Assembly (NCBI GenBank): GCA_050485485.1
Contig: JBJHBM010000001.1
Span: 114,916-178,915 of the forward strand
Source of the DNA: Alphaproteobacteria bacterium
GTDB lineage: Bacteria > Pseudomonadota > Alphaproteobacteria > SMXQ01
Direction of reading: 5' to 3'
Length of the DNA stretch: 64,000 nt
Shown here piece by piece: positions 1 through 17,207 of this stretch (the first letter of the stretch is position 1; the number at the start of each line of letters is the position of its first letter). Both the position numbers and the translations under genes were made by a program. The notes under the pieces are model-generated. The model did not search any database. It saw only the letters and a program-made list of their open reading frames with translations, and was not told the DNA's origin.

Positions 1-123
1 TCCTCGAGCTTGCGGATCTGCAGGCCCAGCGCCGGTTGGGCCACGTGCAGATAGGCCGCGGCCTTGGAGAAGCTGCGGAGCTCGACGATGCGCAGGAAGT
101 AGCGAAGCTGGCGGATAGTCATT
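1..123 (-). CDS. LysR-family transcriptional regulator, N-terminal HTH part; the gene continues beyond the window start
   Basis: The reverse complement of 1..123 reads [40 protein letters not shown], a typical LysR HTH start. It is divergent from the aldehyde dehydrogenase gene. Confidence 0.7.
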
Positions 124-276: not shown

Positions 277-1758
277 ATGGCATCCGACACCACCACTCTC
301 AGCAACGAGCGACCGCCGGTTCATGCCGGCCTCCTGATCGAGGGCGCCTGGACGGAGGGTTCGGAACGGATGGACGTGCGCAATCCGGCCCATCCCTCAG
401 AACTGGTCGGCACTGCGGTCCGCGCCACGGAGGCGGACGTGGATGCCGCCGTGGCGGCCGCCAAGGCGGCGCAGCCCGCCTGGGCGGCGAAGGGCTACCG
501 GGCTCGTGCCGCCGTCATCGCCGAGGCCCTCAAGCGGCTCGAGACCGACATCGACGCGCGCGCGCTGCTCTATAGCCGCGAGAATGGCAAGACCCTGGCC
601 GAGGCCAAGGGCGAGCTGATGAGCGTGTTCATGCGCCAGCGCCTCACGCTGGAGCTGGTGGACGAGATCGAGCAGGAGCGGGTGCTGACCGACGACAACG
701 GCCGCACCTTCGTGACCCATATCCCCTACGGTGTGGTGGTTTCCATCGTGCCCTGGAACGCGCCAGTGCCGCTCGCCTTCATGCAAATCGTTCCGGCGCT
801 GCTGGCCGGCAACGCGGTGATCGTGAAACCGCCGGAGACCTGCCCGCTCGCGCTCACCCGCAGCGTCGAGATGATCGCCGACCTGTTCCCGCCGGGACTC
901 CTCGGCCTTGTCACGGGCCTGCCGGCGGAGATCGGCGACCGCCTCACCGGCCATCCCGATGTCGGCAAGGTGGCCTTCACGGGCTCGATCCCGTCGGCGC
1001 GCCACATCGCGGCCAACGCGGCCCAGACCATCAAGGGCATCACGCTGGAGCTCGGCGGCAACGACCCGGCGATCCTGCTCGACGACGTGGACCTGTCGGA
1101 CAAAACCATGAACCAGATGGCCTCGGTGGTGTTCCGCATGTCGGGCCAGGTCTGCATGGCGATCAAGCGGGTCTACGTGCCGTCCCGGATCAAGGATCGC
1201 TTTGTGGACGCCTTCGCCAAGGCCGCCGACAAGGTGGTGGTGGGCGATGGCATCCGGCCCAAGGTCACGATGGGTCCGCTGCATCAGGAGAAGGGGCTGC
1301 TGCGCGGACGCAACCTCGTGGAGGACGCGGAGACGCGCGGCGCGAGCGTGCTCAGGCTCGGCAGGATCGACGACATGGAGACCTTCCGGGAAGGTTATTT
1401 CATGCAGCCGACCATCGTCATGGACATTCCCGACGACGCGCCGCTGATGACGGAGGAGCAGTTCTGCCCGGCGCTGCCGGTTGCCGTCTACGACGACCTC
1501 GACGAGGCGGTCGCGCGCGCCAACGGCACCGTCTACGGCCTCGGCGGCTCGGTATGGAGCAAGGACGTGGACCGTGCCCTCGCGGTCGCGCGCCGCGTCG
1601 AATCGGGCACGGTTTGGGTCAACACCCACGGCACCCAGGCCATCAACCGGCGCGCGCCCTACGGCGGCATCAAGCAGTCCGGCATCGGGCGGCGCGCGGG
1701 GGTCGAGGGGATGCACGAGTACCTGCAGCTCCAGACCATCACCAGCTACGAGGCCTGA
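277..1758 (+). CDS. NAD(P)-dependent aldehyde dehydrogenase
   Basis: The ORF 157..1758 has an internal ATG at 277 preceded by GGAAGGGAG. The protein MASDTTT... (493 aa) has the ALDH family length. It carries ALDH signatures including [10 protein letters not shown], the catalytic Cys region (GQVCMA) and FTGS. Confidence 0.85.
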
Positions 1759-1849
1759 CCGCGCGTCGGGAGACTTGGAGTACGGCGAGAAGCTCTCAAG
1801 GGCCACGCCAGGAACCGCCCCGCGCCGCGGGGCCCAACAGGAGAGGTCA

Positions 1850-2941
1850 ATGAAGACGTCACGCATCATGGGAGCAATGGCGGCGGCCGGGCTCGCCGGG
1901 GCCGTCCTGGCCACGGGCGACGCGCGCGCCGACGCGGTGGCAGATTTCTACAAGGGCAAGACCGTCACCATCTTGATCGGCTACGACACGGGCGGCGGCT
2001 ACGACCAGTACGCGCGCGTGCTCGCGCGTCATTACGACCGCCATATTCCGGGCCGTCCCAGCGTGGTGCCGCGCAACATGACCGGCGCCGGCTCCATCGT
2101 CGCTGCCAACGCGGTCTATAACTCGCTGCCTCAGGATGGCACCAACATCGCCGCGGTCGGCCGTGGCATCGCCATGGAACCGTTGTTCGGCCGCCAGGGG
2201 CCGCAGTTCGAGGGCACCAAGATCAACTGGATCGGTTCCATGAACAACGAGGTCTCGGTGTGCGTCGTGTGGCACGAGGCCAAGGCGCCGCGCATCCAGG
2301 ACGCGATGACGAAGGAGCTGATCATCGGTGGCACCGCACAGGGTTCTGACGGGGTCGATTTCCCGATCATCCTCAACAACGTTCTCGGCACCAAGTTCCG
2401 GCTGATCACGGGCTACCCCGGCGGCTCGTCGCAGATGCTCGCGATGGAGCGGCGCGAGATCGACGGCCGCTGCGGCTGGTCGTGGTCCTCGATCAAGGCG
2501 ACCCGGCCCAACTGGATCCGTGACAAGCAGATCGACGTGACCCTCCAGATCGCGCTCAAGGGCGATCCCGACCTCGACAAGCAGGGCGTGCCGCTGGTCA
2601 TGAACCTCGCCAAGGACGACCGCGACCGCCAGATCCTGCGCCTGATCTTCGCGCGCCAGACCATGGGCCGGCCGTTCATGGCGGGACCAGGCGTGCCGGC
2701 CGAGCGCGTCGCCGCGCTGCGCGCCGCCTTCGACGCCACCATGAAGGACCCGGCGTTTCTGGCGGACGCGGAGAAGGGCAAGATGGACATCGACCCGGTT
2801 TCCGGGCAGGAGGTCCAGGACCTCGTGGCCGAGCTCTACAAGACGCCCAAGGAGCTGGTCGAGGAGGCGGCCCGCGCCACGGCGCGCACCGACCGCACCA
2901 CGATCACCGAACGCAAGGCGGATGAGTCCAAGAAGAAGTAG
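1850..2941 (+). CDS. Bug/TctC-family periplasmic solute-binding protein (tripartite tricarboxylate transporter receptor)
   Basis: Start at ATG 1850, preceded by GGAGAGG. Signal peptide MKTSRIMGAMAAAGLAGAVLA. Family signature ADFYKGKTVTILIGYDTGGGYDQYARVLARHY...PGAGS. 364 aa. The C-terminus ends ...ADESKKK. Confidence 0.85.
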   Translation: MKTSRIMGAMAAAGLAGAVLATGDARADAVADFYKGKTVTILIGYDTGGGYDQYARVLARHYDRHIPGRPSVVPRNMTGAGSIVAANAVYNSLPQDGTNIAAVGRGIAMEPLFGRQGPQFEGTKINWIGSMNNEVSVCVVWHEAKAPRIQDAMTKELIIGGTAQGSDGVDFPIILNNVLGTKFRLITGYPGGSSQMLAMERREIDGRCGWSWSSIKATRPNWIRDKQIDVTLQIALKGDPDLDKQGVPLVMNLAKDDRDRQILRLIFARQTMGRPFMAGPGVPAERVAALRAAFDATMKDPAFLADAEKGKMDIDPVSGQEVQDLVAELYKTPKELVEEAARATARTDRTTITERKADESKKK

Positions 2942-2990
2942 CGCCTTTTTCTCCGGCGCCGTCCGCGCGGACGGCGCCGGACGCTGAACC

Positions 2991-3028
2991 GGGGGCCCCA
3001 TCGTCGATGGGGCCCTTTCGGTTTTTTT
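2991..3028 (+). terminator. Rho-independent terminator after the first tctC-like gene
   Basis: GGGGGCCCCATCGTCGATGGGGCCC hairpin followed by TTTCGGTTTTTTT. It is preceded by a second perfect palindrome GGCGCCGTCCGCGCGGACGGCGCC at about 2955..2978. Confidence 0.7.
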
Positions 3029-3333
3029 CGTGATTTCAGGATATTGCCGGGAGGTTTGGAGAAGAAGAAGGAAGATACCCGAGGGCAGATCGTTCGAATT
3101 ATTATGTTTTTGTTTTTCGCCGGGATTTTGGTTATAAGCGGTGCGCCTGCCTCTCATAACCGCGTGCCATGGAGCCGTCCGGGCGGCGGCCCGGATGCGA
3201 ACGATACGTTTTCGCCTTGCACGCCTGCCGGGGCATGTTTGAATTTCGGTCGTGCCGCGCCTCCGCGCGCCGGCCCCAACCCAGGAAAGCCGGATGCAAG
3301 GTCCGGCTGCCGATACTCAGGAGAGAGCTGAAA

Positions 3334-4812
3334 GTGGCGACAGACACAGCATCCGCGAAGAAGGGCGCCTACAAAGAGTACAGCGCGCCGCATCAGGACC
3401 TCCGCGAATGGCTCGATCGCGTGGACAACATGGGCGAACTGCTCAAGATCGACGGGGCCGACTGGAACCTCGAGATCGGCGCCGTCGCCGAGATGGTCTA
3501 TCACGAGACCCCCGACAATCCCCCGGCGCTGCTGTTCGACAACATTCCCGGCTATCCCAAGGGCTTCCGCATCCTGTCGGGCATGACCAACTCGATCAAG
3601 CGGCTGGCGCTGACCCTCGGCTTCCCCGAGCCCAGCGGGGCCATGGACGTGGTGCGCTGGTACCGCGACCGCATGAAGGATTTCGAGCCGATCCCGTCGC
3701 GCTTCGTCAACACCGGCCCGATCCTTGAGAACGTGGACCGCGACGAGGACGTGGACCTGCTCAAGTTCCCGGTGCCGCTGCTCCATGAGCTCGACGGCGG
3801 CCGCTACATCGGCACCGGCGACGTGGTCATCATGAAGGATCCGGACTCCGACTGGGTCAACTGCGGCACCTACCGCGTGATGATCCACGACAAGAACACG
3901 GTCGGCCTGTGGATGAGCCCGGGCAAGCACGGCCGCCTGATCCGCGAGAAGTACTTCAAGCAGGGCAAGCCGTGCCCCGTTGCCATCAGCGTCGGCCACG
4001 ACCCGCTGATGTTCCTCGCTGCCGGCAACGAGATCCAGTACGGCGTCTCCGAGTTCGCCTATGCGGCGGGCCATCGCGGCGCGCCGTTCGACATGATCAA
4101 GTCGGAACTGCATGGCCTGCCGGTGCCGGCCTATGGCGAAATCTGCATCGAGGGCGAGATCGTCCCCGACGACGAGCGGCCCGAGGGCCCGTTCGGCGAA
4201 TGGACCGGGTACTATGCCTCCTCCGTGCGCGAGGACCCTGTGGTGAAGGTCAAGCGCGTCTATTACCGCAACAACCCGATCATCACCATGGCGCGGCCCG
4301 GCCGCCCGCCGTCCGACTACACGCTCTCCAAGAGCGTCATCAAGTCGGCGCTGGTGTGGGACCAGGTCGAGGGCGCGGGCCTGCCCGGCGTGCAGGGCGT
4401 GTGGTGCCACCAGAACGGCGGCGGTCGCCTGTTCAACGTGATCTCGATCAAGAATTCCTACCCGGGCCATTCGCGTCAGGCGGGGCAGCTGTGCTGCAAC
4501 GTCCATGCCGGCAACTACCTGGGCCGCTGGGTGGTCGTGGTGGACGAGGACATCGATCCGTCCAACCTGTGGGACGTGACCTGGGCGATGGCCTCGCGTT
4601 GCGATCCGATCGAGGACATCGACATCACCCGCCGCGCCTGGTCGGGCGCGCTCGATCCGCGCAAGCGGGCGGGCGATAACTTCAACTCCCGCGCGATCGT
4701 CGACGCCTGCCGTCCGTTCGAGTGGAGGAGCGAATTCCCGCCGGTCGCGGAGTCCTCGCCCGAGCTCGCGGCGAAGACCCTCGATAAGTGGAAGCATTTG
4801 CTGAGCAAGTAA
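3334..4812 (+). CDS. UbiD-family (prFMN-dependent) reversible decarboxylase
   Basis: GTG start at 3334 directly after AGGAGAGAG. 492 aa with the UbiD hallmark E-x-P-E-G-P-F-G-E (RPEGPFGEWTGYY) and overall UbiD length. The codons upstream of the GTG are low-GC and rare, so they are judged non-coding. Confidence 0.85.
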   Translation: MATDTASAKKGAYKEYSAPHQDLREWLDRVDNMGELLKIDGADWNLEIGAVAEMVYHETPDNPPALLFDNIPGYPKGFRILSGMTNSIKRLALTLGFPEPSGAMDVVRWYRDRMKDFEPIPSRFVNTGPILENVDRDEDVDLLKFPVPLLHELDGGRYIGTGDVVIMKDPDSDWVNCGTYRVMIHDKNTVGLWMSPGKHGRLIREKYFKQGKPCPVAISVGHDPLMFLAAGNEIQYGVSEFAYAAGHRGAPFDMIKSELHGLPVPAYGEICIEGEIVPDDERPEGPFGEWTGYYASSVREDPVVKVKRVYYRNNPIITMARPGRPPSDYTLSKSVIKSALVWDQVEGAGLPGVQGVWCHQNGGGRLFNVISIKNSYPGHSRQAGQLCCNVHAGNYLGRWVVVVDEDIDPSNLWDVTWAMASRCDPIEDIDITRRAWSGALDPRKRAGDNFNSRAIVDACRPFEWRSEFPPVAESSPELAAKTLDKWKHLLSK

Positions 4813-4821
4813 ACCGTGTCG

Positions 4822-4850
4822 GCAAGGGCGCCCCGCAAGGGCGCCCTTGC
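4822..4850 (+). other. Perfect 12-bp-stem hairpin immediately after ubiD (GCAAGGGCGCCC-CGCAA-GGGCGCCCTTGC). It has no U-tract, so it may be an attenuator or an mRNA-stabilising stem-loop.
   Basis: Read directly from the sequence. It overlaps the 5' end of the next ORF. Confidence 0.5.
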
Positions 4851-4926
4851 TCCTTGCGTTCGCGCGTCGCGTCCTGACGCCCCGAGGGGCAGCCCCGGCG
4901 GCGCCTTTATTGCACCAGGGGAGCTC

Positions 4927-5502
4927 ATGCGCCGCCCCGGCAAACCCCAGCCTTCATTATTCAGGCAGATTTTCGGCCTGCCGTTCTGGGCCTTCGTCGC
5001 GGTCGCGGCGGCGGCCGGCATCGCCACCTGGGAGATCAAGGGACCGGCTCAGGTCGAGGCGGCCCTGCGCGGCGACCTCGACCTGCTCCTGTTCCTGCTG
5101 CCCCGGGTGCTGGGGGGTATGCTGCTCGCGGGACTCGTCCAGGTGGTGCTGCCGCCCGAGGTGGTGTCGCGCTGGGTGGGGGAGAACTCCGGCCTGCGCG
5201 GCCTCGTGATCGCGACCGTGGTGGGCGCACTCACGCCGGGCGGCCCCATGACCTCCTTCCCGATCGTGGTCGCGTTCTACATGTCCGGGGCCGATCGCGG
5301 GGCGCTGGTGGCCTATATCACGGCATGGTCGTTGCTCGGCTTCCAGCGGTTCCTGGTCTGGGAGCTGCCGCTGCTCGGGCCGGAGATCAGCCTGTTCCGC
5401 ATCCTCGTCGTGTTCTGGATGCCGGTTCTGGCCGGCCTGATCGCAAGGCGCCTGCCGTTCGGCCCGGAGACCGTTCCGCCCTCGGAAAGGGAGGGCCGCT
5501 GA
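4927..5502 (+). CDS. Predicted permease, half-size subunit 1 (YraQ/ArsP-like 'predicted permease' fold split into two genes)
   Basis: ATG 4927 after GGGGAG. Multi-TM protein with GGPMTSFPIVVAFYMSGADRGALVAYITAWSLLGFQRFLVWELPLLGPE. This is clearly paralogous to the next gene. Confidence 0.6.
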   Translation: MRRPGKPQPSLFRQIFGLPFWAFVAVAAAAGIATWEIKGPAQVEAALRGDLDLLLFLLPRVLGGMLLAGLVQVVLPPEVVSRWVGENSGLRGLVIATVVGALTPGGPMTSFPIVVAFYMSGADRGALVAYITAWSLLGFQRFLVWELPLLGPEISLFRILVVFWMPVLAGLIARRLPFGPETVPPSEREGR

Positions 5503-5503
5503 C

Positions 5504-6025
5504 GTGGACCTGCCCGCCTTCGACGTTTCGCTGGTGCTGATCTGGGGGCTGGTTGTCGTGCTCGCATACCTCGCGTGGCGGCGCGGCGAAGGCCGGTTGC
5601 AGCGGGGGCTGCGGCGCGGCATCGACATCTTCCTCGTCAACGGCCCGCGCATCGTCGTGGCGCTGCTGGCCGCCGGCTTCGTCGCCTACCTGCTGCCGGA
5701 AGGCGTGATCGCCCAGTGGCTCGGCGCGGAAGCGGGCTGGCGCGGCATCCTGATCGGCTGCCTGGTGGGGCCGTTCTTCCCCGGTGGGCCGCTCGTCATC
5801 TTCCCGGTGCTGGTGGCGCTGCTCAAGGCCGGGGCGGGGGTGCCGGCGGTGTTCGCGTTCCTGACCGCCGCCTCGCTATGGGGCGTGCATCGCATCCTCA
5901 TGTTCGAGCTGCCGATGATGGGGTCGCGCTTCACCGCCAACCGCATGATCTCCTCGCTGCTGCTGCCGCCGCTCGCGGGCTTCGTCACCGGCGCCGCAAT
6001 GCAGGTGCTGGGCATCGCCTCGTAA
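5504..6025 (+). CDS. Predicted permease, half-size subunit 2 (paralog of the preceding gene)
   Basis: GTG start 1 nt after the previous stop. GGPLVIFPVLVALLKAGAGVPAVFAFLTAASLWGVHRILMFELPMMGSR aligns with the subunit-1 motif. Confidence 0.6.
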   Translation: MDLPAFDVSLVLIWGLVVVLAYLAWRRGEGRLQRGLRRGIDIFLVNGPRIVVALLAAGFVAYLLPEGVIAQWLGAEAGWRGILIGCLVGPFFPGGPLVIFPVLVALLKAGAGVPAVFAFLTAASLWGVHRILMFELPMMGSRFTANRMISSLLLPPLAGFVTGAAMQVLGIAS

Positions 6026-6186
6026 GGGCCGATTTTATCTCAAGTCTTTGATCCGATTTGGATTTGGTGCCTTGCCCGGGGCGTCGGGGCCGGTTATCGT
6101 TCCGGTGGAGGCATAACAAGAAAGCCCAAGATATAGCTTCAACAGGGATGGCGGCAAACAGGGCGCCATCCATCCAACGGGAGATA

Positions 6187-7476
6187 ATGATGACGATTCG
6201 CTACAGTTTCGCCGCGCTGGCGGCCGGCGTCCTTGCCGCGGGCTTCCTGATGGCGCCGGCGCCGGCCGCGGCCGACCCCGTGGCCGACTTCTACAAGGGC
6301 AAGCGGATGGAGATGCTGATCGGCTACTCCTCCGGCGGCGGCTACGACACCTACGCGCGCGTGGTCGCGCGCCACTGGCCGCGCCTGATCCCCGCCCAGC
6401 CCACCATGACGCCGCGCAACGTGCCGGGCGCGGGTTCGATGCGGCTGATGAACGAGATGTACAACACCCGGCCCAAGGACGGCACCGCAGTCGCGACCGT
6501 CAGCCGCGGCATCGTCCACGAGGAGTTGTGGGGCAACCAGGGCGTCCAGTTTAGGGCCAACGAGATGCACTGGATCGGCAGCGCCAATAACGAGGTGAGC
6601 GTGTGTGCGTTCTGGAAGACCGCGCCCGCCGCCACCGTCAACGACCTGCTCAACAACGAGCTGGTGGTGGGCGGCACCGGGCCGGGCGCCGACACCGACG
6701 CCTTTCCGCAGGTGATGAACAACGTGTTCGGCAGCAAGCTCAAGCTGGTGACTGGCTACCCCGGCGGCAACGACATCAACTTCGCGATCGAGCGCGGCGA
6801 GGTCCAGGGACGTTGCGGCTGGTCGTGGTCGTCGGTGGTGGCCACGCGCGCCCAGTGGCTGAAGAACAAGGACATCCTGATCCCGATCCAGATGGCGCTG
6901 ACCAAGCACGCGGACCTGGCGGACGTGCCGCTGGTGATGGACCTCGCGCGCAACGAGCGCGAGAAGCAGCTTCTGACCCTGGTGTTCGCGCGCCAGACCA
7001 TGGGGCGTCCGTTCCTCACCACCGATCAAGTGCCGGCCGAGCGCGTCGCGATGCTGCGCAAGACCTTCATGCAGCTGATGGAGGACAAGCAGTTCCTGGC
7101 GGAAACCGAGAAGGCGCGCCTCGAGATCACCCCGGTTTCGGGTGAGGAGGTCCAGCAGCTCGTCTCCAGTCTGTTCCAGTTCCCGAAGGACGTGATCGAA
7201 GCCTCCAGGCTCGCCGCCAGCGACGCCGCACGCACCCAGGTGGTGAAGGCGGTGGTGCCGGAGGTGACGGTGACGGCGCGGGTCGCAGCCGTGCAGCGCG
7301 GCGGCGAGCGTGTCCAGTGGCAAGGCGACACCGCCAAGGGCCGCGTCAACCTCGACGGCAAGACCGAGGTGACCGTCGCCGGCAACAAGGCTACGGGCGC
7401 CGACCTGAAGGAAGGCATGACCTGCGACTTCAAGATTCTCGGCGTAGAGACGGCGCTGGCGATCGCCTGCAAGTAA
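6187..7476 (+). CDS. Bug/TctC-family solute-binding protein with an extra ~65-aa C-terminal domain ending ...GMTCDFKILGVETALAIACK
   Basis: ATG 6187 after GGGAG. Signal peptide, then ADFYKGKRMEMLIGYSSGGGYDTYARVVARHW...PGAGS. 430 aa versus ~325 aa for a canonical TctC. The C-terminal domain is homologous to the two small stand-alone proteins at 16622..17462 and to the tail of the TctC at 15031..16275. Confidence 0.8.
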   Translation: MMTIRYSFAALAAGVLAAGFLMAPAPAAADPVADFYKGKRMEMLIGYSSGGGYDTYARVVARHWPRLIPAQPTMTPRNVPGAGSMRLMNEMYNTRPKDGTAVATVSRGIVHEELWGNQGVQFRANEMHWIGSANNEVSVCAFWKTAPAATVNDLLNNELVVGGTGPGADTDAFPQVMNNVFGSKLKLVTGYPGGNDINFAIERGEVQGRCGWSWSSVVATRAQWLKNKDILIPIQMALTKHADLADVPLVMDLARNEREKQLLTLVFARQTMGRPFLTTDQVPAERVAMLRKTFMQLMEDKQFLAETEKARLEITPVSGEEVQQLVSSLFQFPKDVIEASRLAASDAARTQVVKAVVPEVTVTARVAAVQRGGERVQWQGDTAKGRVNLDGKTEVTVAGNKATGADLKEGMTCDFKILGVETALAIACK

Positions 7477-7484
7477 CCGTGTCG

Positions 7485-7521
7485 CGCGGGGCCTTTCCGC
7501 GCTCTCGCGGAAGGGCCCCGC
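7485..7521 (+). other. 16-bp-stem hairpin after the tctC-fusion gene (GCGGGGCCTTTCCGCG-CTCT-CGCGGAAGGGCCCCGC)
   Basis: Read from the sequence. It is preceded by the same CAAGTAA-CCGTGTCG junction found after ubiD. Confidence 0.5.
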
Positions 7522-7922
7522 AATCTTGCCGGGCAGGTACGGGACGGAGCGCGAACATCGCCGCGAAGTGCCAGAAAAGTAACGTTTTCATGGCTTAAAG
7601 CTGTTGCATGTTGGGCGCCTCCCTGCCAAATTTCAAAACGTCGGCGGCCTGCCCGGAGGCTGCCCGGACGATGCGCGCAGCCGCGCGTCGTGCAATCAAG
7701 ATGGCCCATCGCGCGTTTGTTCGGAATGGCGGGCGCGCGATCCGAAGAAGCTCCGGGACGGAGGGGGGCTGCCCTTGAAGCGTCGCGCCGGCTCTCGCGG
7801 GCCGGTCGGACCGGGGATTTTCCCTGGAGAAAGTTGACAATGGCTGGACGCTGGTGCGCGGCCGGCCGAGCAGGAGGATGCGCCTGCCCGGAAGGGGCAG
7901 GCCGTAACGGATAGAGGACTGT

Positions 7923-9767
7923 ATGGCAACGACCACCAAGCCCACCGGCGCCCAGAAACCATTTCGCAAGCCGATCCCGACCCCCAAGAAGCCGAAGCTG
8001 AAGACTGCCGGGGCCGGCCGTTTCAATTCCGACGTCATCGTCGACATGCTGCACATGTACGACATGCCGTACGCCTCGCTGAACCCGGGCGCGAGCTACC
8101 GCGGCCTGCACGACAGCATGGTGAACTACGGCGGCAACTGGCCGTACATGATGCTCTGCACCCACGAGGAGACTGCGGTCCAGATCGCCCACGGCTATTC
8201 CCGCGCCACCAACAAGCCGATGGTGGCGATCGTCCACAACCTGGTCGGCCTGCTGCATTCGAACATGGCGATCTACTACGCCTACATCGACCGCGCGCCG
8301 ATCTTCATCATCGGCGCCACCGGCCCGCTGAACGAGACCAAGCGGCGCCCGAAGATCGACTGGATCCACACGGCCAACGGCCAGGGCGCGGCGATCCGCG
8401 AATACGTCAAGTTCGACGCCCAGCCGGCCACCGTGGATGGCGTCCCCGAAGCCTTCGCGCGCGCCTATTCGGTGATGATGACCCAGCCCACCGGGCCGAT
8501 CTACATGTGCTACGACGCGTGGCTCCAGGAGGAGAAGCTCGAGCACAAGGTCGAGCTGCCGCCGCCGTCGGCGGTCAAGGTGCCGTCCAAGATGGCGCCC
8601 GACCCGGAAACCCTGCGCAAGGCGGCCGAGATGCTGGTCGCTGCCAAGTTTCCGATGCTGTTGGCCGAGTTCGCGGGCCGCTCCGAGGACGGCTACAACG
8701 CGCTCGTCGATCTCGCCGACACCCTGCACTGCGCGGTCTATGACCTCGACACGCGCTGCAACTTCCCCGGCACCCACCCCTACAATATGTCGATGATCGA
8801 CGACGTGCTGAAATCGGTGGACCTCGTGGTCGGCCTCGACGCCCAGGACTGGGAGCGCCCGACCACGCGTCTGATTTCCGCCACCCGCACGCGCGAAAGC
8901 AAGATGGCGAAAGGGTGCAAGTTCATCGACATCGGCTTTGGCGAACTCAAGATCTCGGGCTGGTCGCTCGACTACCAGCGCATGATGAACTTCGACTTGC
9001 GCATCCTCGGCGATACCGACATTGCGATCCCGATGCTCACCAAGATGTGCAAGGAGATCATCGCCAAGAGCTCCGGCCTTAAGTCGAAGCTCGAGGCGCG
9101 CGGCAAGAAGCTCGCCCAGATCCACGCGAAGAAGCGGGCGGAATGGCGCAAGGTGGGTCTCGACTCGAAGATGCGCAAGATGAGCCCGATCCCGCACGCG
9201 GTGCTCGCGACGGAAATCTGGGAAGTCATCAAGGAGCACGACTGGGTACTGACCGCGAGCACGCTCGAGGACTGGACCCGGCGCATCTGGGACTTCGATG
9301 CCCACCACCGTCACCCGGGCAAGTCGATGGGCACCTCGACCCAGATCGGCACCTCGCTCGGCGTGGCCCTCGCCAACCGCGACAAGGGGCGGCTCGTGGT
9401 GGACATCCAGCCCGACGGCGACCTCATGTTCGACGCCGGCGCGCTGTGGATCGCGGCCAAGCACAACATTCCGATGCTGATCGTGATGTACAACAACCGC
9501 GCCTACTACAACGACTGGGAACACCAGATCCGCATGGCGCGGCTGCGCAAGACCGACGAAAAGAGGGCGCATATCGGTATGGACCTGTGCGATCCGGACC
9601 CGGACTTCGCCGGCCTCGCCCGCGCGATGGGCTGGTACGCCGAGGGTCCGATCGACCGCTGCGAGGACATCCAGCCGGCGTTGCGCCGCGCGATCGAGCG
9701 GGTGCGTGCCGGCCAGCCGGCGCTCGTGGACACGATCACCCAGCGTCGCGACGCGTGGAACCAGTAG
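7923..9767 (+). CDS. Thiamine-diphosphate-dependent enzyme (acetolactate-synthase / benzoylformate-decarboxylase-like) with a Lys/Pro-rich N-terminal extension
   Basis: 614 aa. PYR domain HEETAVQIAHGYSRATNKPMVAIVHNLVGLLHSNMAIYYAYIDRAPIFIIGATGP. TPP-binding GDG...N motif (DIQPDGDLMFDAGALWIAAKHNIPMLIVMYNN). RBS AGAGGA 7 nt upstream. The 915-aa ORF on the opposite strand (7026..9773) is judged spurious. Confidence 0.85.
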   Translation: MATTTKPTGAQKPFRKPIPTPKKPKLKTAGAGRFNSDVIVDMLHMYDMPYASLNPGASYRGLHDSMVNYGGNWPYMMLCTHEETAVQIAHGYSRATNKPMVAIVHNLVGLLHSNMAIYYAYIDRAPIFIIGATGPLNETKRRPKIDWIHTANGQGAAIREYVKFDAQPATVDGVPEAFARAYSVMMTQPTGPIYMCYDAWLQEEKLEHKVELPPPSAVKVPSKMAPDPETLRKAAEMLVAAKFPMLLAEFAGRSEDGYNALVDLADTLHCAVYDLDTRCNFPGTHPYNMSMIDDVLKSVDLVVGLDAQDWERPTTRLISATRTRESKMAKGCKFIDIGFGELKISGWSLDYQRMMNFDLRILGDTDIAIPMLTKMCKEIIAKSSGLKSKLEARGKKLAQIHAKKRAEWRKVGLDSKMRKMSPIPHAVLATEIWEVIKEHDWVLTASTLEDWTRRIWDFDAHHRHPGKSMGTSTQIGTSLGVALANRDKGRLVVDIQPDGDLMFDAGALWIAAKHNIPMLIVMYNNRAYYNDWEHQIRMARLRKTDEKRAHIGMDLCDPDPDFAGLARAMGWYAEGPIDRCEDIQPALRRAIERVRAGQPALVDTITQRRDAWNQ

Positions 9768-9814
9768 CGGCATAGCGGTACGTCGGACGGCAAGGCCCGC
9801 GGAGCATTGGCCAT

Positions 9815-10402
9815 ATGCGTAGATTGGTCGTAGGCATGTCGGGTGCGTCGGGTGCCATTTACGGCATCCGCTTCCTCGAGGTTCTCAGCAAGGCCGAGGA
9901 CATCGAGGTGCACCTGATCCTGTCGGCTTCCGCGGGCCAGACCATCGTGGACGAAACCGACTGGACGGTGTCGGACGTCAAAGCGCTCGCCGACGTGGTC
10001 TACAACAACCGGGACATCGGGGCGTCGCTGTCGAGCGGCTCCTATCGCCACGACGGGATGATCGTGGCTCCGTGCTCGGTCAAGACCCTGTCCGGGATCG
10101 TCAATTCCTACGACGACAACCTGCTGACACGCGCGGCCGACGTGTCGCTCAAGGAGAAGCGGCGCGTCGTGCTGCTGGTGCGGGAGACGCCCCTGCACCT
10201 CGGCCATATCGAACTCATGGGACGGGCGGCGAGCTACGGTGCCGTCGTCATGCCGCCCGTTCCGGCCTTCTATCATCGTCCTCAGACGTTGGACGACGTG
10301 ATTAACCAGACAGTGGGCAAGGCACTGGATCTTTTCGACATTCCCCACCGGCTGTTCCGGAGGTGGAAGGAGTCGAACAACGGGGGAGGGACGACCGGCT
10401 GA
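9815..10402 (+). CDS. ubiX: Flavin prenyltransferase UbiX/Pad1 (makes prFMN for UbiD)
   Basis: MRRLVVGMSGASGAIYGIRFLEVL... 195 aa, a typical UbiX N-terminus and length. Confidence 0.9.
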   Translation: MRRLVVGMSGASGAIYGIRFLEVLSKAEDIEVHLILSASAGQTIVDETDWTVSDVKALADVVYNNRDIGASLSSGSYRHDGMIVAPCSVKTLSGIVNSYDDNLLTRAADVSLKEKRRVVLLVRETPLHLGHIELMGRAASYGAVVMPPVPAFYHRPQTLDDVINQTVGKALDLFDIPHRLFRRWKESNNGGGTTG

Positions 10403-10489
10403 GCCGCGGGCTCGGCTTTTAACCGGCATCGATCTGCACAACAACGGCGGGCGATGCATCACTCACCACTCGCAAACAGGTGGGGTGAC

Positions 10490-12649
10490 ATGGATTATCT
10501 GATGCTGATGGCGACGAGCGCCGGCGATGCCCTTGCAATCATCGGTGAGCCCTCGCGCCTCTTCTTCCTGTTCAGCGGTGTCGTCATCGGCCTCGTGCTG
10601 GGCGTCATCCCCGGTCTCGGCGGTCTCGTCGGCCTCGCGCTCCTGCTTCCCTTCACATTCGACATGGACAGATATGCGGCCTTCGCGTTCCTTCTCGGAA
10701 TGGGGGCCGTCACGACGACGTCGGATACCATACCGGCAGTGCTGTTCGGCGTGCCCGGCACGACGGGATCGGCCGCGACCATCCTCGACGGTCACCCCCT
10801 GGCGCGCCAAGGCCATGCTGGGCGCGCTTTCGGCGCGGCCTATTCGGCCTCCCTGCTGGGCGGCCTCCTGGGCGCGCTCCTGCTCGCGGTGTCGATCCCG
10901 ATCCTGCGGCCGGTGATGCTCTATCTCGGCTCGCCGGAGCTGCTGTCGTTCTCGGTGTTCGGACTGTCGATGGTGGCGGTGCTGTCGGGTTCCTCGCCGA
11001 TGCGCGGCATCGGCGCGGCCTGCCTCGGCCTCCTGATCGCCATGGTCGGCTCAGACCCGCAGACCGGCACCCTGCGCTGGACGCTGGATTCCCTCTACCT
11101 GTGGGACGGTCTGCCGCTGGTGCCCGTCACCATCGGCCTGTTCGCGCTGCCGGAGCTCGCGGACATGGCGATCAACCGGACCTCGATCGCGCGCGACGCG
11201 AAGAGCGTGAAGTTCGACACCCGTACCGGCCAGTGGCAGGGGGTGCGCGACACGCTCAACAACTGGTGGCTGGTAGTGCGCGTCGCCTGGCTCGGTGCCT
11301 CGCTCGGCGCGATCCCGGGCCTCGGCTCCTCGATCGTGGACTGGGTCTCCTACGGTCACGCGGCCCGGACCGAGCCGCGCGCGGAGGAAACCTTCGGCAA
11401 GGGCGACATTCGCGGCGTGATCGCGCCCGAATCGTGCAACAACGCCAAGGAAGGCGGATCCCTGGTGCCGACCATCGCCTTCGGCGTGCCGGGCTCGGCC
11501 TCTATGGCGATCCTGCTCGGCGCGTTCCTGATCCACGGCCTGGTTCCGGGCCCGGACATGCTGACCAAGCACCTCGACGTCACCTATTCGATGGTGTGGT
11601 CGATCGCCATCGCCAACGTGCTCGGCGCCGGCATCTGTTTCATGTTCTCGGACCAGTTCGCGAAGCTCGCGCTGCTGCGCTACTCGATCATCATGCCGCT
11701 GGTCCTGTGCGTGGTGTTCGTGGGCGCGTACCAGGGCTCGCGGCAATGGGGCGATATCTACGCCCTGCTGGTGTTCGGTACCGTCGGCTGGGTGATGAAG
11801 CGCCTGCGCTGGCCGCGTCCGCCGGTAATCCTCGGTGTCGTGCTGGGCGGAATCGTGGAACGCTACATGTTCATCTCTGTGGAGCGTTACGGCACCGAGT
11901 GGATTTTCCCGACGAGCCTGGAGAGCGTCCGCTGGGTCGTACTGATCATGTTCGCGCTCTCGATCTACGGCCTTCTGCGCCCGCTGATCAAGGAGTACAA
12001 ATACGCCGGCGGCGTCGGCGGGATGCTCCGAAGCATGGAGCCGTCGAAGCCCCACTTCGACGCTCAGACGCTGATGTACCTCTTCTTCATCGGCGTGTTC
12101 GGCTACATGATGTACGAGGCGTCCGGCTGGAACTACGACGCCAGGATCATCCCAAACATCGTGGGCTATTTCGGCCTCACCATCCTGGCGATCAGCCTGC
12201 TCAACCATACCTTCAAGAGCGTCGAGATCACCGCCGCCCAGAGGGCCGAGCAGGCGGACGAGAGCGCCATGGGCCGGCTCAAGCGCAGCATGCATCTCGA
12301 CATCTCGGTGATGGGGCCGCAGATGCCGAAGAGGCTGCTCGCGCTCAGGGCGATCGGCTATCTCGGGTGGCTGTTCTCATTCCTGCTGTCCACGGCGCTG
12401 ATCGGCATGATTCCGTCGCTGTTCCTGCTGGTGGTCGCCTACATGAAGATCGAAGGGCGGGAATCGTGGAAGCTGACGCTGTCCTGCGCGTTCGGCCTCA
12501 TGTTGTTTTCGATCGTCCTGTTCGACAAGCTCCTGGCCCTGCCGTGGCCGCAGACGGAGTTCGGCGATCTCTACCTGATGTTCGATCAGGCGGTGCTGCA
12601 ACCCCTGACCTACTGGGTCGAGGTGCAGATGGGCTGGCGGGATCCTTGA
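10490..12649 (+). CDS. Fused TctA-TctB tripartite tricarboxylate transporter membrane protein (TctA large permease domain followed by a C-terminal TctB-like 4-TM domain)
   Basis: ATG 10490 after AGGTGGGGTG. The first ~500 aa align with the stand-alone TctA at 18389..19897 (GVPGTTGSAATILDGHPLA, ETFGKGDIRGVIAPES, GGSLVPTIAFGVPGS). The last ~200 aa align with the stand-alone TctB-like protein at 17758..18399, including RESWKL. Confidence 0.85.
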   Translation: MDYLMLMATSAGDALAIIGEPSRLFFLFSGVVIGLVLGVIPGLGGLVGLALLLPFTFDMDRYAAFAFLLGMGAVTTTSDTIPAVLFGVPGTTGSAATILDGHPLARQGHAGRAFGAAYSASLLGGLLGALLLAVSIPILRPVMLYLGSPELLSFSVFGLSMVAVLSGSSPMRGIGAACLGLLIAMVGSDPQTGTLRWTLDSLYLWDGLPLVPVTIGLFALPELADMAINRTSIARDAKSVKFDTRTGQWQGVRDTLNNWWLVVRVAWLGASLGAIPGLGSSIVDWVSYGHAARTEPRAEETFGKGDIRGVIAPESCNNAKEGGSLVPTIAFGVPGSASMAILLGAFLIHGLVPGPDMLTKHLDVTYSMVWSIAIANVLGAGICFMFSDQFAKLALLRYSIIMPLVLCVVFVGAYQGSRQWGDIYALLVFGTVGWVMKRLRWPRPPVILGVVLGGIVERYMFISVERYGTEWIFPTSLESVRWVVLIMFALSIYGLLRPLIKEYKYAGGVGGMLRSMEPSKPHFDAQTLMYLFFIGVFGYMMYEASGWNYDARIIPNIVGYFGLTILAISLLNHTFKSVEITAAQRAEQADESAMGRLKRSMHLDISVMGPQMPKRLLALRAIGYLGWLFSFLLSTALIGMIPSLFLLVVAYMKIEGRESWKLTLSCAFGLMLFSIVLFDKLLALPWPQTEFGDLYLMFDQAVLQPLTYWVEVQMGWRDP

Positions 12650-12674: not shown

Positions 12675-12707
12675 GAGGGCGGGAGCGATGCTCCCGCCCT
12701 CTTTTTA
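12675..12707 (+). terminator. Rho-independent terminator after the tctAB fusion
   Basis: GAGGGCGGGAGC-GAT-GCTCCCGCCCTC followed by TTTTT. Confidence 0.75.
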
Positions 12708-12737: not shown

Positions 12738-13808
12738 TCAGGGATGCTCGATCTGGGTGAACCACTCGGTCGGCAGTTCGCGACCGAGGCCGGCCTCGCG
12801 CGCCTTGCGGTAGGCAAGGCCGCCGACCACGGTGAATTGATAGCCGATGCCGGAATAGTTGAGGAAGCAGGTGGCCTCGCGGTCGTTCGTCCGGCCGGCC
12901 ACCCGGCCGGTGACGAGGTCGGCAAGCTCGGCCATGGATTTCTCGTCCAGGCACGCGTCGGGGGCATGGACGCCCTTGCGATCCTCGGCGAGCTCGACTC
13001 CCTGGGTGCGCACCACGAGGGGCGCGTTGTCGCGCAGATGCACGGCGCGGCGCGCGCAGGCCGCGACCGCCTCGGGCGCGATCTCGGCCGGCTTGATGGA
13101 CGAATAATGCACGCCCTCCCGCACATGGTTGTGGCCGATCACGGGATCGAGGGCATTGGTGGCGCAGGCGACGATATCGGCGTCGCGGACCACCGCTTCG
13201 ACGCTCGCCGCCGCGGCGACCTCGATCCCGAGCCGTGCCGTCATGTCGCGGGCGAAGGCGGCGCGATGGGCGGGGTTGGGGCTGTAGCACACCAGCCTTT
13301 CGAGCGGCCGTACGGCGGCCATCGCCATTGCCTGCGCGCCGGCCTGCCAGCCCGAGCCGATCACCGCCGCCACCCGGGCGTCGGCGCGCGCCATGTGGCG
13401 GGCCGCGATGCCGTTGGTGGCGCCGACCCGCATCCGCTGGACCACGCCGTCCGGGAAGATCGCGAGCGGCTCGCCGTTCTCCGTGGAGAACAGCAGCACG
13501 AGCCCGACGTAGCGTCCGCCGGGCGCGGCCGGCACCTTCTCGCGCCGGGTCGAGCCCGCGACCTCGCGCCAGCCGATGATGTCGGAATTGAGCCGGATGG
13601 AGGCGAATCCCGACGGCGCATGGACGCCGTCCATGCTCTTGAGGGCGTAGACGGTGCCCGGATCGCGGGCGGGGGCGACGATCTCGGCCCGGCCCCGATT
13701 GCCCCCGCGTCCTTCGGCGAGATCGCGGTAGCCCTCCTCGAGAACGGCGATACACTCCGGCATGGCGAGCACGCGGTCGAGCTCGTCGTTGCTGAATATC
13801 CAGGTCAT
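12738..13808 (-). CDS. Ornithine cyclodeaminase / mu-crystallin family protein (paralog 2)
   Basis: 356 aa. MTWIFSNDELDRVLAMPECIAVLEEGY... with a Rossmann-type VIGSGWQAGAQ motif. About 50% identical to the upstream paralog. Confidence 0.85.
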   Translation of the reverse strand: MTWIFSNDELDRVLAMPECIAVLEEGYRDLAEGRGGNRGRAEIVAPARDPGTVYALKSMDGVHAPSGFASIRLNSDIIGWREVAGSTRREKVPAAPGGRYVGLVLLFSTENGEPLAIFPDGVVQRMRVGATNGIAARHMARADARVAAVIGSGWQAGAQAMAMAAVRPLERLVCYSPNPAHRAAFARDMTARLGIEVAAAASVEAVVRDADIVACATNALDPVIGHNHVREGVHYSSIKPAEIAPEAVAACARRAVHLRDNAPLVVRTQGVELAEDRKGVHAPDACLDEKSMAELADLVTGRVAGRTNDREATCFLNYSGIGYQFTVVGGLAYRKAREAGLGRELPTEWFTQIEHP

Positions 13809-13832
13809 GGAAGTTCCCGCCTGTAGGGACGC

Positions 13833-14909: not shown

Positions 14910-14963
14910 GGGGCCTCCCGTAGGGCTGTCGTTGAACCGCCGCGGCCGTTGTTCCGGGCGGGC

Positions 14964-15003
14964 AAGGAAAAGGGCGGAGCCGTCCCGCGTCGGCCCCGCC
15001 CTT
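14964..15003 (-). terminator. Rho-independent terminator (minus strand) after the tctC-fusion gene
   Basis: Minus-strand sense reads AAGGGCGGGGCCGACGCGGGACGGCTCCGCCCTT followed by TTTCCTT. Confidence 0.6.
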
Positions 15004-15030
15004 GTTATAGCAGGCTATGAACGCCCGTGC

Positions 15031-16275: not shown

Positions 16276-16569
16276 ACATGTCCTTTCAAGAGAGGACCGG
16301 ATTCCGTCGGGCCCGGATGGCGCAGGAGCGAAGCGGTGGCTTCTGGGCCGCACCATAGGCTACGCAAACTCGGTACGAGACGTGGCCGGCGGGTAGCAGG
16401 AAAGCATGCGAAGCGATGAGACGGTCCTCGGGGCTTCGCGCCTCCCGATCACAGTCGCCTTCGCCGTAGATGTTGGTAGGCGCAGGCAAAAAGGCAAGAA
16501 CCACCCCCGGGATGGTGATGCTTCGGCTGCGGCACGCCCCGGGGACGGATTCGAAACGTCTCGCGGGTA

Positions 16570-16601
16570 CGAAAAGGGGCGGGCCCGCAAGAGCCCGCCC
16601 C
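16570..16601 (-). terminator. Rho-independent terminator (minus strand) after small secreted protein 1
   Basis: Minus-strand sense reads GGGGCGGGCTCTTGCGGGCCCGCCCC followed by TTTTC. Confidence 0.65.
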
Positions 16602-16621
16602 CCAACGACGGCTATGCCGCG

Positions 16622-16879: not shown

Positions 16880-17036
16880 TTGATAATCCTTTCGAGACCC
16901 CACTCCCGACGGTGGACGACCTCCCGTGATGGGAAGGGGTGAGATCGTTTCATTTGTGAAGGTGCCGGGCCCTTGCGGGCGAGGCCTCCCGCCGGTACGC
17001 ATCTCCTTCTGATTTGTGCGTGCCCGGTCGTGAAGG

Positions 17037-17187: not shown

Positions 17188-17207
17188 TCCACATCGGAAA
17201 TCCGATG

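Follow-up and report, generated by a model that had tools for sequence, protein, structure and literature searches.

UbiD-family enzymes, which depend on prenylated flavin mononucleotide (prFMN), are wanted as reversible (de)carboxylation catalysts, and few of their substrates are known. UbiD/UbiX modules within LysR-controlled aromatic-acid clusters or catabolic islands are a known theme. In Mycolicibacterium fortuitum, PhdB is the UbiX-type partner of PhdA, and the substrate of HudA (PA0254), a pyrrole-2-carboxylate decarboxylase, is an N-heteroaromatic acid. In Comamonas, aromatic dicarboxylates are taken up by tripartite tricarboxylate transporters (TTT), with TphC/TpiBA serving terephthalate and IphC serving isophthalate; the known substrates of TTT systems are di- and tricarboxylates, not amino acids. 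In the upper hmf pathway, the UbiD-family proteins HmfF/HmfG are combined with UbiX, the aldehyde dehydrogenase PsfA and LysR control (PMC8091172). The solved structure 7pda is that of the phenazine-1-carboxylate decarboxylase PhdA (PMC10850782). The subject of this report is a chromosomal island (positions ~1-22800, ~22.8 kb) in a 64,000-nt window of an uncultured alphaproteobacterium (contig JBJHBM010000001.1 of assembly GCA_050485485.1); by the window we mean this whole stretch of analysed DNA. We tentatively propose, with rather less than even confidence, that the island degrades an imported aromatic or N-heteroaromatic acid with more than one carboxyl group by a composite catabolic route. 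Distinctive of this island is the set of partners that surround UbiD, namely a thiamine pyrophosphate (TPP) enzyme of an unnamed subfamily, two ornithine cyclodeaminase (OCD) enzymes, a split cupin pair (CupL/CupS), a pair of half-size permeases (PermA/PermB) and divergent TctC-like receptors. In the library searched, no paper on this gene combination came up when UbiD was looked for together with OCD, cupin, TPP or TTT.

Gene identities were taken from profile searches against Pfam and NCBIfam, in which bit scores were judged against the curated cut-offs. The genes for the predicted enzymes are the following:

277-1758, plus strand: NAD(P)-dependent aldehyde dehydrogenase (ALDH; Pfam Aldedh, 455.7 bits)
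3334-4812, plus strand: UbiD, a UbiD-family prFMN-dependent (de)carboxylase of 492 aa (three Pfam UbiD domains, TIGR00148)
7923-9767, plus strand: thiamine-diphosphate enzyme of 614 aa, here called the TPP enzyme (Pfam TPP_enzyme_N, M and C)
9815-10402, plus strand: UbiX, a flavin prenyltransferase (NF004685, 270 bits against a cut-off of 188; TIGR00421, 234.5 against 108.9)
12738-13808, minus strand: OCD1, an NAD(P) enzyme of the ornithine cyclodeaminase/mu-crystallin family (Pfam, 124.5 bits)
13833-14909, minus strand: OCD2, a paralogue of OCD1 with 49% identity (Pfam, 132.7 bits)
20029-20592, minus strand: CupS, a small cupin of 187 aa with the metal-binding motif S-x-H-x3-E...H (Pfam Cupin_2; C-terminal cupin of 3bu7, E = 1.4e-8)
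20655-21464, minus strand: CupL, a small cupin with a three-histidine motif (Pfam Cupin_2)

The open reading frame (ORF) of ubiD begins at 3169, and translation from a GTG at 3334 with an AGGAGA ribosome-binding site gives the 492-aa protein, homologues of which have 489-500 aa. The UbiD_N, UbiD and UbiD_C domains all exceed their cut-offs, with 46.2, 216.8 and 95.6 bits, and TIGR00148 is matched with 276.8 bits against a cut-off of 244.85. None of the models for individual functions is reached: the 4-hydroxy-3-polyprenylbenzoate decarboxylase of ubiquinone biosynthesis (NF008175) scores 141.1 bits against 788, phenylphosphate carboxylase beta 316.4 against 469, VdcC 282.8 against 650, BagN/FevL 192.6 against 1000 and the MqnL type 182.2 against 496. 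Among solved structures, PhdA (7pda) ranks first with 359 bits, followed by HudA (234), Fdc1 (177), HmfF (157), AroY (143) and Escherichia coli UbiD (135). The motif E284-GPFG-E289 is invariant in 13 members of the clade, and the segment EGPFGEWTGY is aligned with PhdA and HudA; the two glutamates of this E-x4-E motif presumably correspond to the catalytic pair Glu277/Glu282 of Fdc1. The placement of both UbiD and the TPP enzyme rests on bit-score ranking against the PDB and NCBIfam in place of a phylogeny. Judged by this ranking, UbiD is a member of the prFMN-dependent (de)carboxylase family that stands outside every named subfamily, in an uncharacterised clade with a large membership of its own at 65-95% identity. 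Of 8000 scored candidate relatives, 7949 were found at E <= 1e-30, and those of them that were listed bear only generic UbiD-family designations or an automatic ubiquinone-enzyme label.

By sequence, PhdA is the closest known system. Like PhdA, the UbiD of the island is of the catabolic type; the two proteins align over residues 20-489 and share the EGPFGEWTGY segment, but their similarity is far below the level of orthologues and nothing points to a phenazine substrate here. To our knowledge, the phd system is without the TTT, TPP, OCD, cupin and half-permease genes of the island. HudA, the second-closest solved UbiD, aligns over residues 21-428 only and with lower similarity, and its gene context has nothing in common with the island. 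The UbiX protein remains under the VdcB exception model (243.7 bits against 290) and, as the cognate UbiX encoded 5 kb downstream, is predicted to make the prFMN for UbiD. The initial annotation, a note made from the letters of the DNA alone, had described a non-housekeeping UbiD/UbiX module beside ALDH, a TPP enzyme and TTT transport and next to a LysR gene, with ubiD and ubiX in the same orientation. This description holds, the distance between the two genes being 5.0 kb, and so does the assignment of UbiD to the catabolic rather than the housekeeping type; the refuting condition set there, a UbiD that groups with the ubiquinone enzyme, is contradicted by the 141 bits against 788 and by the ranking of PhdA (359 bits) over E. 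coli UbiD (135).

In architecture, the closest system is the hmf upper pathway, which shares UbiD, UbiX, ALDH, LysR and an occurrence in Proteobacteria with the island. Even so, we give hardly any credence to the idea that the island is a known pathway in disguise, be it the hmf upper pathway (HmfF/HmfG, PsfA, LysR) or a housekeeping UbiD/UbiX pair. Clusters of the hmf type do unite UbiD, UbiX, ALDH and a LysR regulator (PMC8091172), but HmfF is a distant relative (157 bits compared with 359 for PhdA), the ubiquinone UbiD model is missed by a wide interval (141 against 788), the furoyl-CoA genes hmfABCDE of the lower pathway are absent from the island, and TPP, OCD and cupin genes are not part of hmf clusters. 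The furandicarboxylate (hmf) and ubiquinone readings were accordingly dropped on profile and PDB scores. Dipicolinate catabolism was also considered and rejected: the dip cluster, as published, begins with a monooxygenase and is GntR-regulated, and no UbiD is mentioned for it.

A scan with one genome per species yielded 80 loci with UbiD proteins 54-95% identical to that of the window (numbered, like the metagenome loci below, with the prefix L; their genes were called by a simple filter on third-position GC content, GC3), and these loci came from Alphaproteobacteria, Acidobacteriota, Actinomycetes, Binatia, Gemmatimonas, Burkholderiales, Bacillota and sulfate-reducer lineages. The closest relatives, L006 and L007, are alphaproteobacterial metagenome-assembled genomes (MAGs) with UbiD proteins 94-95% identical, and they are syntenic with the window in the order ALDH-SBP-UbiD-PermA-PermB-SBP-SBP-TPP-UbiX-TctAB-OCD, where SBP stands for a TctC-like substrate-binding protein. 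When the neighbours in 85 UbiD loci were clustered without labels, the top families were the receptor, OCD, TPP, cupins, TctA, ALDH, the half-permeases and UbiX. Since the same families are the commonest around UbiD orthologues elsewhere, their grouping in the island goes beyond chance. The TctC-like receptor was found near UbiD in 8 of the 16 loci that span at least 12 kb and have at least 65% UbiD identity, and in 6 of the 44 loci with less than 65%; the corresponding fractions are 7/16 and 2/44 for OCD, 6/16 and 1/44 for the PermA/PermB pair, 5/16 and 7/44 for UbiX, 4/16 and 1/44 for TPP, and 3/16 and 0/44 for ALDH. UbiD, CupL and CupS are directly adjacent in six loci (L003, L011, L026, L035, L041, L049) from at least four phyla, and a TPP gene lies beside UbiD and/or the cupin pair in eight (L003, L011, L026, L113, L136, L142, L144, L157). 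Several loci contain two or three UbiD paralogues, as would suit substrates bearing several carboxyl groups. Neighbours of more distant UbiD relatives include molybdenum hydroxylases, FAD monooxygenases, gentisate-dioxygenase-like bicupins and amidohydrolases. In Tunturiibacter (L002), UbiD, OCD, a bicupin and a second UbiD are accompanied by an enzyme of the dihydrodipicolinate synthase (DHDPS) family and an ALDH; DHDPS-family enzymes are pyruvate-dependent aldolases, an alternative means of disposing of a 2-oxo acid. A separate observation concerns the cultured anaerobe Paradesulfitobacterium ferrireducens, in which the 5-21 kb interval of L049 holds three full or partial UbiD paralogues, three small cupins, OCD, a TPP enzyme, TTT and TRAP/TAXI transporters and two genes of the major facilitator superfamily (MFS).

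The cupins are encoded by two genes. The conserved part of CupL lies at 20655-21266; its start within the ORF is uncertain, and homologues have about 200 aa. With single sequences, the only PDB match of either CupL or CupS is the gentisate 1,2-dioxygenase 3bu7, and for a profile derived from 24 CupL homologues the matches are confined to gentisate/salicylate 1,2-dioxygenases (3bu7, 4.6e-11; the catalytic cupin of 2phd and 3nst, 2e-5), apart from a weak match (E = 0.1) to the 208-residue 5-nitrosalicylate dioxygenase 8ch4. The H-x-H ... H residues are invariant in the 24 homologues, and CupL proteins are 60-91% identical across phyla. Among solved families, the CupL profile thus points to the gentisate/salicylate/5-nitrosalicylate 1,2-dioxygenases (class III cupin ring-cleavage dioxygenases) alone, and the three-histidine site is shared with them. 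The known class, however, consists of single-chain bicupins of ~350-390 residues, whereas the island encodes two proteins of ~200 and 187 aa, and the likeness of CupL to the class is limited to ~70 residues; the closest precedent for so small a protein in this class is the 5-nitrosalicylate dioxygenase, the one small solved chain of the class among the profile matches. The cupin pair is abundant, with 1262 database clusters and occurrences in more than 560 metagenome stretches.

In a reverse scan, metagenomes were searched with CupL at the centre, again giving 80 loci. CupS was adjacent in 58 of these, a TctC-like receptor was near in 32, TctA in 18, the PermA/PermB pair in 13, OCD in 8, TPP in 7 and UbiD in 4; UbiX and ALDH were near in none. 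These counts indicate that the cupin-TTT-OCD operon is a module of its own, which UbiD joins only occasionally. A Rieske oxygenase, glutathione S-transferase (GST), dienelactone hydrolase, bicupins, a NicO-type metal transporter and EutA-like proteins were also found beside the cupin pair, as was a class II aldolase that scores best with the 3,4-dihydroxyphthalate decarboxylase model (94 bits, where 200 are required). A further neighbour, a protein of 329 aa, presumably resembles 4,5-dihydroxyphthalate decarboxylase. Going by these assignments, the surroundings of the cupin pair are those expected in aromatic-acid catabolism. A second cupin architecture (L166, L171-L173, L087-L089) consists of three tandem small cupins that face GST and OCD genes, and these loci also hold a ferredoxin-like protein, a protein with a CTP-dependent riboflavin-kinase-like domain, an NMT1_3 receptor and a TctC receptor; the link between cupins and OCD is thus independent of UbiD. 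In 15 metagenome loci, including L090, L119, L126, L130-L132 and L137, CupL-CupS or the half-permeases adjoin an acidic family of ~134 aa with a His-rich C-terminus, for which no match in Pfam or NCBIfam and no clustering with any called protein of the window island were found.

The reverse scan bears directly on whether the island is a mosaic, in which the UbiD-PermA/PermB-SBP, TPP-UbiX-TctAB and cupin-TTT-OCD units serve different, perhaps chemically related substrates and are neighbours through the clustering of catabolic genes. We regard this as a serious, if doubtful, explanation. The cupin module is found with CupS and its own transport genes far more often than with UbiD, UbiD orthologues are also found in quite other company or isolated amid transposases, the units of the island are set apart by terminators and long gaps, and the presence of three binding proteins and two TctA units suggests more than one ligand. 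On the other side, the same families co-locate again and again in distant phyla and in shuffled orders, with UbiD, CupL and CupS adjacent in the six loci named above and TPP between or beside them; the PermA/PermB pair adjoins UbiD in some loci and the cupins in others; and UbiX sits inside the TPP-TctAB unit and not beside UbiD, which links the units functionally. The initial annotation, which saw one uncharacterised catabolic pathway and proposed genome context as one of its checks, is partly supported: the same partner families recur with UbiD, but the island is a composite of modules that also occur apart.

The TPP enzyme passes the cut-offs of the N and C domains (58.5 and 59.3 bits), while the M domain (20 bits) remains under its cut-off. 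The cofactor motifs THEE..GY (the context of the catalytic Glu) and DG-x26-NN are present in the translation. Its best NCBIfam model is PRK08327 ('thiamine pyrophosphate-requiring protein'; 228.6 bits against 456), the model for benzoylformate decarboxylase (BFDC; NF005485) gives 135.3 against 493, and the best PDB match, the BFDC 4q9d, scores 91 bits over residues 37-299 of 614 only. The protein belongs to an uncharacterised subfamily of the thiamine-diphosphate-dependent decarboxylase superfamily and is predicted to act as a 2-oxo-acid decarboxylase. ALDH reaches no NCBIfam equivalog cut-off (best, 344 bits against 521), and its best solved relative is 8yen (330 bits). For OCD1 the best solved relative is the delta1-pyrroline-2-carboxylate reductase 6t3e (123 bits), and OCD2 scores 137.6 bits with the archaeal alanine dehydrogenase model, the cut-off of which is 409. 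As far as we know, all characterised members of the OCD family act on amino or imino acids, and this is the sole hint of nitrogen in the pathway.

A mandelate/benzoylformate-type logic had been suggested at first annotation from the combination of TPP enzyme and ALDH. The pairing itself finds support: in the Actinomycetes MAG L026, where the order is aldehyde:ferredoxin oxidoreductase, TPP, CupL, CupS, UbiD, MFS, OCD, an aldehyde:ferredoxin oxidoreductase takes the place of ALDH beside the same TPP enzyme, so that the pairing of TPP enzyme and aldehyde oxidiser, and with it the logic from 2-oxo acid via aldehyde to acid, is kept. The specific parallel fails, as the TPP enzyme is not a BFDC by its score (135 against 493) and no other mandelate gene accompanies it, mandelate racemase and mandelate dehydrogenase being absent among the island genes. 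Like the mandelate branch, in which the BFDC MdlC is followed by MdlD, the island would thus lead from a TPP-dependent 2-oxo-acid decarboxylase to an aldehyde dehydrogenase; unlike there, the 2-oxo acid would more probably come from ring cleavage or deamination. The deamination variant can be extended to an Ehrlich-type or mandelate-like route, in which OCD oxidatively deaminates an unusual amino acid of the aryl- or heteroaryl-glycine type to a 2-oxo acid, the TPP enzyme converts this to an aldehyde, ALDH forms an aromatic acid from it, UbiD decarboxylates that acid in the last step, and a neutral product leaves via PermA/PermB or the MFS transporter. Some OCD members are amino-acid dehydrogenases (the score of OCD2 with such a model being well under the cut-off), benzoylformate decarboxylases are the nearest solved relatives of the TPP enzyme, its pairing with ALDH or aldehyde:ferredoxin oxidoreductase is conserved, the permease pair directly follows ubiD, and the route does not require oxygen, which fits the loci of anaerobes. 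We nevertheless consider it quite unlikely: only the N-terminal half of the TPP enzyme aligns with BFDC and the BFDC model is far from reached, racemase and dehydrogenase are missing from the island, TTT systems are not known for amino acids, and the cupin pair, the most conserved of the partners, would be left without a role.

Transport functions account for a large part of the remaining island genes:

1850-2941, plus strand: SBP1, a periplasmic TctC-like receptor of a divergent subfamily (Pfam TctC, 29.8 bits against a cut-off of 27)
4927-5502, plus strand: PermA, a half-size ArsP_1-like permease (Pfam ArsP_1, 39.1 bits)
5504-6025, plus strand: PermB, a second half-size ArsP_1-like permease (Pfam ArsP_1, 27.8 bits, under the cut-off of 32.3)
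6187-7476, plus strand: SBP2, a paralogue of SBP1 with 52% identity (without a Pfam family at E <= 0.001)
10454-12649, plus strand: TctA-TctB fusion of 731 aa, the membrane part of TTT system 1 (Pfam TctA, 436.9 bits, residues 36-460)
15031-16272, minus strand: SBP3, a TctC-like receptor with a C-terminal two-cysteine domain (Pfam TctC, 51 bits; start according to a public 413-aa gene call)
16622-16879, minus strand: small secreted protein a, 85 aa, signal peptide and two-cysteine domain
17208-17462, minus strand: small secreted protein b, 84 aa, signal peptide and two-cysteine domain
17758-18444, minus strand: TctB2 (Pfam TctB, 31.1 bits against a cut-off of 29.1)
18389-19897, minus strand: TctA2 (Pfam TctA, 388.4 bits)
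21528-22799, plus strand: MFS transporter, divergent from the cupin operon (Pfam MFS_1, 97 bits)

TctA, TctB and TctC components of a TTT system are thus all present, SBP2 being assigned through its paralogy with SBP1 only. The N-terminus of SBP1 resembles a signal peptide. For the fused tctAB gene an alternative start is possible at 10490; the C-terminal 260 aa of the fusion match TctB2 of the island in BLASTP (E = 2e-8), and the orthologue in L003 has Pfam matches to both TctA and TctB. As in the TphC/TpiBA and IphC systems of Comamonas, TctC-type receptors together with TctA/TctB serve an aromatic-acid cluster; unlike those, the receptors of the island match Pfam TctC barely or not at all, one TctA-TctB pair is fused, and two receptors carry a two-cysteine domain. 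SBP2 had initially been called a tctC fusion, correctly so, since it consists of the SBP1 paralogue plus a C-terminal two-cysteine domain of ~70 aa. This domain of ~60-70 aa occurs in four copies in the island (SBP2, 7260-7473, plus strand; SBP3, 15034-15240, minus strand; proteins a and b) and shows the C-terminal consensus T-Q/K-I-T-I-x-G ... L-K-x-G-M-x-C ... I/V-x-C-K; L006-L008 likewise encode the fused form with this motif. Pfam and NCBIfam gave no match for the domain, and a homologue search with the 84-aa protein returned only the protein itself.

The half-permeases adjoin UbiD in L006-L010, L035 and L036 and the cupin pair in the 13 metagenome loci counted above. PermB is assigned to the family through its paralogy with PermA (37% identity) and the conserved pairing. 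What had been annotated as a split permease are indeed two adjacent genes, but no frameshift is involved, as the products are paralogous halves that are likewise encoded by two genes in eight other loci. Each of them corresponds to one repeat of the ArsP_1 (PF03773) fold. The motif PGGP in PermA/PermB presumably occupies the site of the vicinal cysteine motif in the full-length ArsP family. A function as ArsP organoarsenical efflux permease was considered and rejected, the proteins being half-size with a PGGP motif lacking cysteines and scoring low with SaoE (44.6 bits against 325) and SO_0444 (34 against 300); SaoE, the nearest permease model, is itself a predicted organometal efflux protein from a preprint. 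In some cupin loci (L168, L169), a split chromate-transporter pair and a NicO-type transporter hold a position similar to that of PermA/PermB.

From the observed gene identities, family memberships, unit boundaries and conserved co-location, we infer for the composite route the following order of steps. The anion would be taken up by the three TctC-like receptors and the two TctA/TctB membrane units, and UbiD, with prFMN made by UbiX, would remove a ring carboxyl group non-oxidatively. CupL/CupS would act as a split enzyme of the gentisate/salicylate-1,2-dioxygenase type that opens an ortho-hydroxy-carboxy ring in an oxygen-dependent reaction; according to the chemistry of this class, cleavage between the carboxyl- and the hydroxyl-bearing carbons would yield a 2-oxo acid. 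This would be converted by the TPP enzyme to an aldehyde, which ALDH would oxidise to an acid for central metabolism. The two OCD enzymes would reduce or deaminate an imine or amino intermediate, from which it would follow that the substrate or an intermediate carries nitrogen. The PermA/PermB pair and the MFS transporter would serve to export a product or to deal with a metal that is co-transported or needed as a cofactor, and the LysR protein would activate at least the adjacent ALDH-SBP1 unit. That the substrate itself cannot be read from the sequence had already been stated in the initial annotation, and we agree.

Several observations weigh against this composite ring-cleaving route. The genes for UbiD, UbiX and the cupins sit in separate transcription units, and the cupin pair occurs mostly without UbiD (4/80 CupL loci) and in none of these loci with UbiX or ALDH (0/80 each), so that the cupin and UbiD modules may serve different substrates. 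CupS of the window, otherwise of the His/Glu form, carries Ser where the first metal-binding His would be expected, and an AlphaFold model of CupL from the 24 close homologues was too poor to use (predicted local distance difference test score, pLDDT, 52). We know of no OCD-family enzyme in an aromatic ring-cleavage pathway. Finally, UbiD-CupL-CupS clusters are present in Paradesulfitobacterium, Desulfobacterales and Thermodesulfobacteriota, which are anaerobes, in which an oxygen-requiring dioxygenase is unexpected.

The clusters of anaerobes lead to a further explanation, according to which the whole system is independent of oxygen, the cupins being metal-dependent isomerases, tautomerases, decarboxylases or accessory subunits of UbiD, and uptake of a polycarboxylate coupled to product export through PermA/PermB could conserve energy as a precursor/product antiport. 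In MAGs of sulfate-reducer lineages and in Paradesulfitobacterium, UbiD-CupL-CupS is found together with TTT (in L035 also with PermA/PermB), with TPP or OCD absent in some of them, and the NicO-type and other half-size transporters beside cupin pairs hint at a special metal need. We hold this to be decidedly improbable, as the only solved relatives of the cupins are ring-cleaving dioxygenases and CupL retains the three-histidine site, Rieske oxygenases and FAD monooxygenases are among the neighbours found in aerobes, and the TPP, ALDH and OCD steps encoded by the window organism point to full degradation.

With the composite route as the preferred reading, a broader proposition can be formulated, which we judge unlikely in its present form: the loci may represent a widespread undescribed lower pathway of soil, sediment and marine habitats, in which the split cupin opens a substituted, possibly amino- or aza-, salicylate-type ring supplied by the new UbiD clade. 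The resulting 2-oxo acid would be shortened by the TPP enzyme and an aldehyde oxidiser and not hydrolysed as in the gentisate pathway, OCD imine reductases would handle the nitrogen, and the cupins of anaerobes may act independently of oxygen. If true, this last reaction would be a new activity for the gentisate-dioxygenase class. The island is a well-defined and widespread candidate cluster rather than a surprise, and the abundant cupin pair is equally unstudied. The ligand of the island would give a function to a gene set of Alphaproteobacteria, Acidobacteriota, Actinomycetes, Binatia, Bacillota and sulfate-reducer lineages, and it could reveal the recycling of a common natural aromatic polycarboxylate.

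Within the window, GC content varies from 0.62 to 0.74 and ORFs are plentiful on both strands; a GC3 of 0.84-0.94 marks the real genes on the plus strand between 277 and 12649, in DNA of 66-70% GC. Nine plus-strand genes lie in this interval, and each gene of the initial inventory was found there on the plus strand with GC3 in that range, the divergent LysR gene aside. Position 12649, first taken as the end of the island, closes only one transcription unit: a nine-gene operon on the minus strand (12738-21464), encoding OCD1, OCD2, SBP3, the two small secreted proteins, TctB2, TctA2, CupS and CupL, converges on a terminator at 12675-12701, and together with the MFS gene it extends the island to ~22.8 kb. 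The regulatory and non-coding features are:

1-122, minus strand: LysR-type regulator, N-terminal 40 residues only (helix-turn-helix sequence; reads leftward from 122, and the gene leaves the window)
148-164: ATA-N11-TAT dyad ATAACGATAATGTCTAT, read from the sequence within the 155-nt divergent lysR-ALDH intergenic region
2991-3017, plus strand: intrinsic terminator closing the ALDH-SBP1 unit (12-pair stem with 8 GC pairs, then a T-run)
7477-7922, plus strand: non-coding gap of 447 nt from SBP2 to the TPP gene (hairpin after SBP2, then a partly conserved stretch)
12675-12701: terminator hairpin separating the convergent tctAB and OCD1 genes (12-pair stem with 10 GC pairs, T-run)

From these features, the plus strand comprises at least three transcription units, ALDH-SBP1, UbiD-PermA-PermB-SBP2 and TPP-UbiX-TctAB. 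As the terminators split the strand in this way, ubiD and ubiX are not co-transcribed. In the 447-nt gap, upstream of the TPP gene, L006 and L007 share a block at ~7555-7640 with the window, although the intergenic DNA around it is not conserved; the block reads about GAACATC...AAAAG.AACG.TT...TTGCATGTTGGG...CTGCCA.ATTT and is probably a promoter or operator in the promoter region of the third plus-strand unit. A scan of the whole window against Rfam gave no match, so that neither a TPP riboswitch nor another structured RNA was found in the gap. A sigma-54 promoter upstream of the TPP gene was rejected, because the GG-to-GC spacing is wrong and the site, by eye, is without conservation in L006.

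The regulator has the N-terminal winged-helix domain of the LysR type, its gene is oriented divergently to ALDH, and a T-N11-A box, the textbook form of a LysR site, is present in the shared intergenic region; the dyad at 148-164 is a candidate LysR box. On the minus strand, positions 163-134 form a promoter-like site for lysR, and related LysR genes are found near UbiD orthologues in L006, L008, L009 and L033. That the module is under a LysR regulator, as annotated initially, is plausible for ALDH-SBP1, which the divergent gene adjoins; for ubiD and ubiX, which lie in separate units past a terminator, this control is unproven. The 10-mer CTCATAACCG occurs in two exact copies in the 64 kb, at 3153-3162 (plus strand, upstream of ubiD) and at 21465-21474 (minus strand, between cupL and the MFS gene). 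In a shuffle control at one mismatch, 1.9 matches were expected, and as a shared operator the 10-mer is only a lead. Related GTTAT/ATAAC elements are located at 148-164, 3130-3141 and 6092-6103.

The MFS gene is the probable right edge of the island; it is followed by a gene for an M23 peptidase and then by housekeeping genes, including those for RelA/SpoT, ParC, HemB, a copper ATPase and a multicopper oxidase. The window contains no second ubiD, ubiX, TPP or ALDH gene, and no mobile-element genes, tRNA genes or integration-site flanks were seen in it. The GC content of the island is 0.66, compared with 0.70 for the remainder of the window. It falls to 0.62-0.65 at 16000-22000, in the cupin/TctAB2 part, the flanking chromosome having 0.70-0.74, and this dip may be a sign of foreign origin. 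Outside the island, a 547-aa protein encoded at 31543-33186 (minus strand) represents an unusual fusion of an N-terminal trypsin-like protease domain (Trypsin_2, residues 56-185) with a C-terminal substrate-binding domain of the glycine-betaine type (OpuAC, residues 255-531). At 49654-53475 (minus strand), the gene for the copper-type P-type ATPase, which has an HMA domain, adjoins that for the three-domain multicopper oxidase, forming a copper-resistance pair that is not related to the island.

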